8,057 nt of DNA, taken from the IMG/VR virus record IMGVR_UViG_2703718806_000009; one strand, written 5' to 3'. This document shows, in pieces, positions 5,017 to 5,970 of the stretch (its first letter is position 1; each line of letters begins with the position of its first letter). Under the pieces are notes generated by a model. It was not told the origin of the DNA. It worked only from the letters and a program-made list of their open reading frames with translations, and searched no databases. Origin of the DNA: a virus. Taxonomy: Duplodnaviria > Heunggongvirae > Uroviricota > Caudoviricetes. The position numbers were made by a program, and so were the translations under genes.

Positions 5017-5970
5017 CTACCCCCTGAAACCCGGCGGAATTTCGGTATCCGGTTCAGAAATATGATTCACGCAACGCTGCGCGGGACCACGCCACAGTCG
5101 AATAACCAGTTCATCCCATTTCTCACGGAGTTTTTCCGGGCTCTTGATGTTTTTTATCCAGAACGGATCCCGTTGTGCCCGGCTGAACATTTCGCAAATT
5201 TGTCTGTGACTTCTTCCATCCAGCATCCGCATTGTGCGCACGTCATTGGCCCACGCCGTCCAGTTGGGCTCTTTCGGTCGCGTGATCTCACCATCGTCAC
5301 TGGCAGCCTGTTCGTACAGGTTTACAACCCGCCCCCAGATCCACTGCGCACATGTCAAATCCTCCCGGGTTCCCCACTGGCGTTTTTTCACGCTGAACAC
5401 AACAGCATCAGGATGGCGGGTTAAAAACGCCTGTTCAGCCGTCAACTCGTCCGGTTGCGAAGCGTCCGGACAAGAGAGTTTTTTATTCTCTGTTGTATTC
5501 TCTGTAGGATCATCGGGCCATTTTGACCTGATGACATTGGGCCGTTTTGAACCAATGGAACGTTTCATTTTGACCTCTTCCATCGTGTCATTTTGACCTG
5601 ATGGAGTGGCGCATTTTGACCCGATGGATTCGTTCACTTTGCCATCATCTAAAAGCGCGCTATCGTAGTTAATTGTGTAAAAATTAGTCATATCACGCTT
5701 CGATTTATTGAGCTTTTCGCTACGCAAAAGCCCCAGCGCTTTCAGACTTGCAAACGCACGCTTTAACGTTGACTCTGACCAGAACGGAAACTGTTCCAGC
5801 CATTGTTCCGTTGTGTTGTAAATCCAGCGAACGCCATCACATTCCATGCCGGAACTGGTATCCCTCAACCAGTAATGCAGTTGCTGCAACACAATGGCTT
5901 CGTTTAAACCAATCTTCATCGCCAGCTGTGTGTTTATAACCAGCGGGCGTTCAGCAAAAAGAAGGCTCAT
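5017..5970 (-). CDS. phage replication initiator (O-like replisome organiser) with DnaT-like C-terminal tail
   Basis: Track ORF 5017..6012 begins with a GTG lacking an RBS; the ATG at 5970 (MSLLFAERPLV...) is preferred. C-terminus ...ISEPDTEIPPGFRG matches the C-terminal end of E. coli DnaT (..[14 protein letters not shown]) as I recall it. The middle of the protein is encoded by the iteron array. Confidence 0.85.
   Translation of the reverse strand: MSLLFAERPLVINTQLAMKIGLNEAIVLQQLHYWLRDTSSGMECDGVRWIYNTTEQWLEQFPFWSESTLKRAFASLKALGLLRSEKLNKSKRDMTNFYTINYDSALLDDGKVNESIGSKCATPSGQNDTMEEVKMKRSIGSKRPNVIRSKWPDDPTENTTENKKLSCPDASQPDELTAEQAFLTRHPDAVVFSVKKRQWGTREDLTCAQWIWGRVVNLYEQAASDDGEITRPKEPNWTAWANDVRTMRMLDGRSHRQICEMFSRAQRDPFWIKNIKSPEKLREKWDELVIRLWRGPAQRCVNHISEPDTEIPPGFRG
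5519..5650. repeat. replication-origin-like iteron array inside the initiator gene: 5-6 copies of CATTTTGACC(T/C)GATGG at ~23-bp spacing, followed by a moderately AT-rich stretch
   Basis: Copies at 5519-5533 (CATTTTGACCTGATG), 5543-5558 (CGTTTTGAACCAATGG), 5566-5580 (CATTTTGACCTCTTC), 5589-5604 (CATTTTGACCTGATGG), 5612-5627 (CATTTTGACCCGATGG) and a degenerate 5635-5649 (CACTTTGCCATCATC). Start-to-start spacing 24,23,23,23,23 bp. Same layout as lambda ori within gene O. Confidence 0.7.

Follow-up and report, generated by a model that had tools for sequence, protein, structure and literature searches.

Background

In phage lambda the replication initiator O has a DNA-binding domain at its N-terminus, joined by a flexible linker to a C-terminal domain. 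The iterons of the origin are located in the linker region of the initiator gene, and the gene of O's partner P lies directly downstream. The extreme C-terminus of O is functionally critical, as function was lost in Oam29, which is lambda O minus its last five residues, and C-terminal tags were tolerated (PMC6022878). Lambda O's C-terminal domain was not visible in the 2025 cryo-electron microscopy maps of DnaB-lambda P (PMC12661323). In Escherichia coli, the dnaT-dnaC pair encodes DnaT, which targets PriA-marked forks, and the helicase loader DnaC. The DnaT tail has been described as a flexible 20-residue segment by nuclear magnetic resonance (PMC5778457). In the 2026 preprimosome model the DnaT C-terminal domain was fitted from the crystal structure of residues 84-153, the text being silent on the tail and stating that recruitment of DnaB/DnaC by the preprimosome "remains unknown" (PMC13377028). 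A parallel between O/P and DnaT/DnaC was already drawn by Brezellec et al. in 2017 (PMC5509034), and the concept of a phage module in the style of DnaT/DnaC is not a new one. Here we describe a replication initiator gene located at 5017-5970 on the minus strand of an 8,057-nucleotide (nt) stretch of Caudoviricetes DNA (IMG/VR record IMGVR_UViG_2703718806_000009; this whole stretch is referred to as the window), whose product carries a lambda O-like C-terminal domain, ends in a DnaT-type tail and is followed by a DnaC-like loader gene.

Two other described systems resemble this locus in part. The YdaU-YdaV pair of the Rac prophage (ydaS/ydaT/racR region) shares with it an operon of repressor, Cro-like gene, YdaT, initiator and DnaC-like gene, and YdaU ends in ...VNTVSLPDSAIPPGFRG and is followed 6 nt on and in frame by YdaV (stop, L, T, M). 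Unlike the window initiator, YdaU is of the DUF1376 type. It lacks both the N-terminal winged helix and a C-terminal domain like that of lambda O, and its C-terminal region gives a weak alignment to DnaT over approximately 80 amino acids (aa). The DopC-DopE system of Cellvibrionales and Oceanospirillales likewise combines an O-like N-terminal helix-turn-helix (HTH) domain with the DnaT C-terminal motif, but in DopC the DnaT C-terminal domain replaces the lambda O C-terminal domain (Phg_2220_C), and the system is chromosomal and domesticated, with no iterons found and a P-like partner (PMC5509034).

Domain architecture of the initiator

The initiator open reading frame (ORF) encodes 317 aa, with the ATG start at 5970, the TAG stop at 5017-5019 and a GTG at 6012 as an alternative start. 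A 954-nt coding sequence of identical extent is annotated by RefSeq in an E. coli chromosome that is 99.7% identical to the window, and RefSeq names for the gene are 'hypothetical protein' or 'phage O protein family'. The protein was matched over its full length by PHROG 391 (phrog_391, 'replication initiation O-like'; residues 17-317 on profile positions 11-298 of 298, E 6.8e-90, 302.7 bits), which places the gene in the lambda O family in the broad sense. No Pfam match was obtained for the whole protein at E<=0.01, nor was a Pfam domain found when each half was searched, and the domain assignment therefore rests on BLAST, PHROGs and AlphaFold2 (AF2). The AF2 model, which was of medium quality (mean predicted local distance difference test score, pLDDT, of 57) and built on a shallow alignment of sequences at least 69% identical, divided the protein into a winged helix (residues 10-100), a disordered linker (109-173), a helical domain (179-293) and a disordered tail (294-317).

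The N-terminal winged-helix domain (residues ~10-100, window 5671-5943) was recognised from its helix and strand pattern at pLDDT 70-87 and is presumed to bind the iterons described below. The top Foldseek matches of this domain in the PDB were the N-terminal domain of RepA from a staphylococcal multiresistance plasmid (RepA_N) and its DNA complex (4pql/5kbj), a weak match (E 0.02, TM-target 0.55) to a protein whose C-terminal part is unrelated and which has no such tail. Sequence relatives of the N-terminal 130 residues were initiators of Erwinia, Pseudomonas, Staphylococcus and Bacillus phages. Unlike lambda O, which matches Phage_rep_O (PF04492) at 5.8e-36, residues 1-137 had no match to this Pfam model even at E<=10, and BLASTP did not align the domain to the N-terminal domain of lambda O.

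The disordered linker (residues 109-173, window 5452-5646, pLDDT 24-35) is encoded by DNA that holds the putative origin repeats and among aligned homologues shows length polymorphism, including a variant with a 31-aa deletion. The helical C-terminal domain (residues ~179-293, window 5092-5436, pLDDT 55-78) is homologous to the P-binding C-terminal domain of lambda O (O residues ~156-299), with BLASTP aligning initiator residues 140-290 to O residues 144-270 at 36% identity (E 2e-25) and tblastn matching many lambda and Stx phage O genes. The family of this domain comprised 2591 representative clusters at E<=1e-3. With the AF2 model, Foldseek assigned no fold to the C-terminal domain and matched the N-terminal winged helix alone.

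The C-terminal tail and host DnaT

The initiator ends in ...GPAQRCVNHISEPDTEIPPGFRG, a tail (residues 295-317, window 5020-5088) that was predicted to be disordered (pLDDT 34-38) and that carries the IPxGFRG signature of DnaT where lambda O ends in ...LDLTNTDWIYGVDL. In BLASTP against the K-12 DnaT protein (NC_000913.3), initiator residues 295-317 aligned without gaps to DnaT residues 157-179, with 15 of 23 positions identical and both sequences at their extreme C-termini (pairwise E 7e-8), and the two share the motif RxVNxxSEPDxxIPPGFRG-COOH. The sole NCBIfam match of the initiator was to positions 158-179 of the 179 in the DnaT model (NF002770; E 0.003), with a score of 17.2 bits far under the cutoff of 201, and a PDB sequence search returned DnaT chains alone (6aep, 2ru8 and 9zbt), via the tail only. 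Although short, the match is thus more than chance. Across 104 DnaT orthologues (71-99% identical), residues R161, D162, N164, S167, P169, D170, I173, P174, G176, F177, R178 and G179 were at least 97% conserved while residue 175 was free, and each of these conserved positions is retained in the initiator tail; the IPxGFRG rule of the DnaT tail is obeyed by the phage tails.

Outside the tail, BLASTP against DnaT found nothing significant in the initiator, including for the N-terminal oligomerisation and PriB-binding domain and the acidic linker of DnaT. The Pfam DnaT model (PF17948; the three-helix single-stranded DNA (ssDNA)-binding domain, DnaT 89-154) had no match in the initiator and did match DnaT itself, and hhalign of 127 C-terminal-domain sequences against 105 sequences of DnaT 84-156 gave a probability of 0.16%. 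DnaT homology beyond the tail was ruled out by the BLASTP and hhalign results. The initial annotation, which had been made from the sequence of the window, correctly saw that the protein ends like DnaT. A check that it named, alignment of the last ~80 residues with DnaT, came out against its reading, as BLASTP, Pfam and hhalign gave no similarity past the terminal motif, the very outcome that it had given as a refutation. The layout that it expected, with likeness to lambda O in the N-terminal ~110 residues, was reversed, with no alignment there and the lambda O homology in the C-terminal domain.

The adjacent DnaC-like loader gene

The gene downstream (window 4270-5010, minus strand) encodes a DnaC-family AAA+ helicase loader of 246 aa, in the position that P occupies in lambda. 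It was 47% identical to K-12 DnaC over 243 aa (DnaC residues 1-241, E 8e-83) and 74% identical to Rac YdaV, and it was matched by NCBIfam PRK12377 (468 bits, cutoff 389), Pfam IstB_IS21 and phrog_50 ('DnaC-like helicase loader', E 8e-76). Its score on the DnaC equivalog NF005931 (296.8 bits) was under the cutoff of 357, so the gene is a DnaC paralogue and not an orthologue. Walker A and B motifs were visible in the translation, the alignment to DnaC is collinear with it through the N-terminal DnaB-binding region, and from these similarities the protein would be expected to load DnaB. No lambda P homologue was found by Pfam, NCBIfam or PHROGs among the main ORFs of the window.

The junction of the two genes (window 5008-5019, minus strand) consists of the TAG stop, 6 nt (CGC ATC) and the in-frame loader ATG. 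When aligned, the window reads GGG TAG CGC ATC ATG AAA AAC and the K-12 dnaT-dnaC junction reads GGG TAA CG ATG AAA AAC, and the tail, stop and ATG-AAA-AAC segment is homologous to the dnaT-dnaC junction at the DNA level. Synonymous differences occurred throughout the tail when it was compared with dnaT at the DNA level. This comparison indicates that the junction is old and shared, kept by protein-level selection, and not recently transferred. Initiator and loader share a reading frame, the host dnaT-dnaC spacer being 2 nt, and the in-frame TAG followed by two codons could allow translational coupling or an occasional read-through fusion.

Tail type and loader type

The C-terminal domain finishes in a conserved ...SPxKLREKWDxL helix, after which alternative tails occur in different homologues, namely IPxGFRG, D[FW]xNTDWxxG[LV] (the lambda O type), HWNSxEAWExx[LI] and several others. 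These were compared with the downstream gene in a species-level set of 71 loci, with one genome per species, that was found with a narrower alignment of the domain and in which lambda P genes downstream were identified with phmmer. A lambda P homologue was next in 27 of the 28 loci with tryptophan (Trp)-type tails and in none of the 15 with IPxGFRG tails, three of which had a DnaC-like gene and twelve no loader (Fisher p = 1e-10, for loci that are phylogenetically non-independent and dominated by Enterobacterales). In a neighbour-joining tree of the domain, both tail classes were interleaved in an Enterobacterales clade at 63-73% identity to the window domain, which implies several independent tail swaps.

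The cleanest case, a natural tail swap, was homologue P0031. Its N-terminal and C-terminal domains are those of the window initiator (overall identity 74%) and its context is likewise DicA/Cro/YdaT, but it ends in GDWNSADGWEDVL and has a Phage_lambda_P gene next. The viral contigs, a redundant set, agreed with the species-level set, with lambda P in 0 of 224 IPxGFRG loci and in 3 of 3 Trp-type loci. In that collection, a search with a diverse alignment of the domain returned as its best 80 matches near-identical E. coli prophages throughout, a search with homologue P0134 gave three loci only, and one with P0132, which has an NTDW tail, recovered relatives with IPAGFRG tails and none with NTDW. 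Taken together, the co-variation of tail and loader supports a role of the tail in selecting the helicase-loading route.

The exact motif EPDxxIPPGFRG-stop was present in at least 120 viral contigs, and the locus counts that follow rest on the 120 listed. A DnaC-like gene started 7 nt past the stop in 46 of them (likewise in L361, at 2975-2986), 62 had no homologue of DnaC, lambda P or DnaB anywhere in the locus, and 11 were too short. Near-identical initiators with the same tail often had no loader gene at all, and the phage-encoded DnaC gene is optional. In the loader-less loci the next gene was DUF977, PerC-like or a methyltransferase, and relatives without a loader have a DUF977 or PerC-like gene in the slot right behind the initiator.

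The initial annotation had called the next gene a DnaC homologue and the pair an origin-binding phage initiator with a DnaC-type rather than a lambda P-type loader. Both statements agree with the data, the former for a paralogue and the latter through PHROG 391, phrog_50 and the comparative loci. Its further statement that the pair mirrors dnaT-dnaC stands for the tail and the homologous junction and falls for the region before the tail, where there is no DnaT domain. The idea that the prophage uses a DnaC-like loader is in keeping with a tail type that excludes lambda P, although a phage loader gene is not obligatory.

A different tail, QDY[RH]xGxxxDGxF, occurred in Oxalobacteraceae, where a DnaC-like gene was next in five of five species-level loci. 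In Duganella and Janthinobacterium (L323, L327, L328, L333, L334 and L337) prophage initiators with the same C-terminal domain end in ...QDY[RH]xG[IV]xxDGxF and a DnaC-like gene overlaps the stop. This tail may be a second, unrelated docking tail for DnaC-type loaders in hosts that lack DnaT. As evidence on the tail, gp18 of phage P22 (coupled to a DnaB-type helicase) was considered and set aside, as the protein does not share the C-terminal domain.

Putative origin repeats within the initiator gene

An iteron array with a 23-base-pair (bp) period and the consensus CATCGnnnCATTTTGACCnGATG was located at 5511-5649 of the window, in the DNA coding for the linker. Five copies at 5511-5626, spaced 23-24 bp apart, were detected by a repeat search, Tandem Repeats Finder gave a period of 23, and a degenerate sixth copy at 5627-5649 was recognised by eye. 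The 15-nt iteron core matched at five clustered sites, where 0.94 would be expected over the window as a whole, and the observed total was reached in 0 of 200 shuffles. As in lambda the iterons lie within the initiator gene, although their period and sequence are other than those of lambda, and by analogy with ori-lambda the array is a putative origin, which for the window initiator would provide a sequence-specific target in place of the PriA-marked forks of DnaT. Beside the iterons is an A+T-rich stretch (5660-5719; GC 0.30-0.33 in 40-nt windows against ~0.5 around it), which is a candidate unwinding element on the same analogy, and a second low-GC stretch was found at 5460-5519 (GC 0.375-0.40). 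In the homologous locus L208, where the initiator has a different (HTH_36) N-terminal domain, different 15-bp repeats occupied the equivalent place.

The repeat search also identified a 12-bp tandem repeat, TTTTATTCTCTG, in two copies at 5481-5504, which encodes TENTTE-type peptide repeats. The copy number of this TATTCTCTG-type repeat (peptide TENTTEITTEN) differed between strains, with three copies in one relative. The polymorphic linker and origin region corresponded to alignment columns 116-166, and E. coli copies of it carried insertions of +12 to +84 bp, the alignment being variable at columns 156-166. Homologues P0023-P0025 (290 aa) were without 31 residues that span most of the iteron-coded stretch, and these variants may be origin-defective.

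Occurrence of the tail on other proteins

Among the matches listed, the motif-bearing proteins fell into three families that did not cluster together in BLASTP. The first is the lambda O C-terminal-domain type, with at least two different N-terminal domains, the second a 356-408-aa type without a Pfam domain, and the third, of 271 aa, has a bona fide Pfam DnaT domain. The profiles phrog_18526, phrog_3729 and phrog_1701 were matched through their last 21 positions only, K-12 Rac YdaU (DUF1376) ends in RQVNTVSLPDSAIPPGFRG, and the labels 'primosomal protein I' or 'DnaT-like ssDNA-binding' were attached to phage proteins of SPN1S, epsilon15, phiV10 and Rac-type phages. The 271-aa protein, in viral contigs L041, L051, L057, L072, L082 and L112, combines a different N-terminal domain with the DnaT domain and the tail, and its gene adjoins cytosine methyltransferase-like and RuvC-like genes with no loader gene nearby. 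This phage 'DnaT' apparently depends wholly on host factors.

Proposed mechanism and alternatives

The gene very probably encodes an initiator of the O type with an internal origin and a DnaC-type loading route. In the mechanism that we propose, the N-terminal winged helix would bind the 23-bp iterons within the gene's own linker-coding region, and initiator molecules assembled there would destabilise the adjoining A+T-rich stretch and open the origin, as lambda O does at ori-lambda. The lambda O-like C-terminal domain would then present the flexible 23-residue tail, and it would be this disordered tail rather than the helical domain that chooses the helicase-loading route. The IPxGFRG tail would dock a DnaC-type loader or DnaB in complex with DnaC, the loader being either the phage DnaC paralogue encoded 6 nt downstream or, where this gene is missing, host DnaC, and DnaB would thereby be delivered to the opened origin. 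Sister initiators would use the same domain with a Trp-rich acidic tail paired with a lambda P loader. For the docking function of the tail taken by itself, the comparative evidence puts the chances at about even, and the explanation as a whole, an O-type initiator whose tail docks a DnaC-type loader or DnaB-DnaC, is marginally favoured over the sum of its alternatives.

Several observations weigh against this explanation. The phage DnaC gene was missing in 62 of the 120 listed viral loci and in 12 of the 15 species-level loci, so that with many tail-bearing loci loader-less the argument depends on host DnaC filling in. The tail adjoins dnaC-like genes, and the association could partly be co-inheritance of a recombination cassette; counter to this, loader-less prophages keep the tail and appear to retain it under selection. 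The non-independence of the loci noted above also weighs against it. For the recruitment of DnaB/DnaC the preprimosome study prefers the N-terminal domain of DnaT (PMC13377028), and the partner of DopC, a domesticated O-like protein with the DnaT C-terminal motif, is P-like (PMC5509034). Finally, DnaT 1-161 forms dimers and the full-length protein forms trimers (review, PMC5778457), and DnaT 84-153 binds ssDNA more weakly and less cooperatively than DnaT 84-179 (PMC4132743).

These last two results are what would be expected if the tail were a self-association or ssDNA-cooperativity element that oligomerises protomers and coats the unwound strand with no direct contact to the loader, and origin initiators need to oligomerise too. 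Such an element would leave unexplained both the strict exclusion of the tail from lambda P-coupled initiators with the same C-terminal domain (0/15 against 27/28) and the natural swap in P0031, and its presence on scaffolds of unrelated folds would be unusual for a segment that packs against its own domain. We regard this alternative as unlikely, although it is the strongest of those considered. Slightly less probable again is binding of the tail to DnaB itself rather than to DnaC, with the phage DnaC-like genes as an optional extra. Most initiators with this tail come without a phage loader gene, and DnaA and PriC both contact DnaB directly (PMC5778457), but any loader gene that is present is always of the DnaC type and immediately adjacent, with the junction conserved as at dnaT-dnaC. 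This alternative overlaps the preferred explanation, since DnaB and DnaB-DnaC cannot be told apart as targets from comparative data.

Recruitment of host PriA and/or PriB by the tail, in place of DnaC or DnaB, would have replication proceed via a PriA-type primosome at the opened origin. DnaT is a partner of PriA and PriB whose C-terminal half docks on PriA (PMC13377028), and retention of the tail in loader-less prophages implies that its partner there must be a host protein. The modelled PriA contact, however, comes from the 84-153 unit and PriB binds Asp66 and Asp70 of the acidic linker (PMC13377028), while BLASTP and hhalign found both of these DnaT regions to be absent from the initiator; a peptide that binds PriA or PriB would also not have to exclude lambda P. 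This makes the proposal improbable. The reading in which a DnaT homologue, joined to an origin-binding domain, makes up the C-terminal region and the pair is a phage copy of dnaT-dnaC is very doubtful, as the similarity of the initiator to DnaT is confined to 23 residues and the domain before the tail is that of lambda O, even though the 271-aa family does carry a Pfam DnaT domain with the tail, the proteins of SPN1S, epsilon15, phiV10 and Rac-type phages are annotated as 'primosomal protein I' or 'DnaT-like', and Rac YdaU can be aligned with DnaT along 80 residues.

Beyond this locus, the preferred docking explanation leads to a more general proposal, which we put forward tentatively and hold at rather less than even odds. 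The IPxGFRG tail of DnaT would hand the preprimosome to DnaB-DnaC, lambda O-family and other phage initiators would carry short, exchangeable peptides at the C-terminus that act as a 'loader code', in which IPxGFRG specifies DnaC-type loaders and a Trp-rich acidic tail those of the lambda P type, and such peptides would have been swapped between phages and the host dnaT-dnaC pair.

Prophage setting and other elements of the window

The window represents an E. coli lambdoid prophage with Qin/Rac-type immunity. Strain SJ2D carries a 99.7% identical copy that is flanked on one side by a DicA/DicC/YdaT-type immunity region and on the other by nin-type, Q and lysis genes. The control region upstream of the initiator (5951-7177), part of the same early operon, was identified by Pfam, NCBIfam and PHROG matches and consists of a YdaT/CII-like gene (5951-6472, minus strand), a DicC/Cro-like gene (6456-6686, minus strand) and a divergent DicA-like repressor (6770-7177, plus strand). 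The same gene order was present in the RefSeq record and in the lambda P-coupled relative L359.

The initiator gene is a member of a catalogued family that is very common in E. coli prophages, with 3981 database relatives of the protein, and the two-gene 1.7-kb segment had partial matches in 2471 of 5426 complete E. coli genomes, with at least 80% of it matched in 224. Two genome contigs (L290 and L291) from metagenome-assembled genomes named 'Bacillota bacterium' and 'Veillonella parvula' hold an E. coli-type prophage region at 87% protein identity, which is most likely binning contamination and not host range.

Elsewhere in the window, a DUF1627 protein with N-terminal winged-helix matches comes after the loader gene (3225-3569 and 3479-4240), and the ORF after the DUF1627 gene is a RefSeq pseudogene ('DNA-binding protein, missing C-terminus'). 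The region 2332-3122 is a P1/P7-type C4-ant immunity cassette within the lambdoid prophage, with an ORF6N anti-repressor gene (2332-2883, minus strand) and, upstream of it, Rfam matches to C4 antisense RNA (2938-3022, minus strand, 69 bits) and the small RNA isrK (3048-3122, minus strand, 51 bits). A hok/sok-type type I toxin-antitoxin locus at 1905-2229 includes a Hok-family ORF (RefSeq hokD, PHROG 'MokW-like host killing') and an Rfam match to the sok antitoxin RNA (2055-2229, minus strand, 117 bits). A type II toxin-antitoxin pair was located at 1094-1802, where the gene of the toxin, a RelE/ParE-family protein (Pfam RelE, E 8e-33), overlaps that of an MqsA-like HTH antitoxin downstream.

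Implications

The gene itself is ordinary, as pairs of an O-like initiator and a DnaC-like loader occur commonly in prophages of E. coli and have already been catalogued. The new point is that interchangeable tails on one C-terminal domain track the type of loader, a pattern that points to approximately 20 disordered C-terminal residues as the specificity determinant in both the DnaT and the lambda O systems. Tail type would accordingly serve as a rule for predicting the helicase-loading route of a prophage, and the tail offers a testable idea for how DnaT recruits DnaB-DnaC. If confirmed, the pattern would be further evidence that phages and the host chromosome exchange replication parts.

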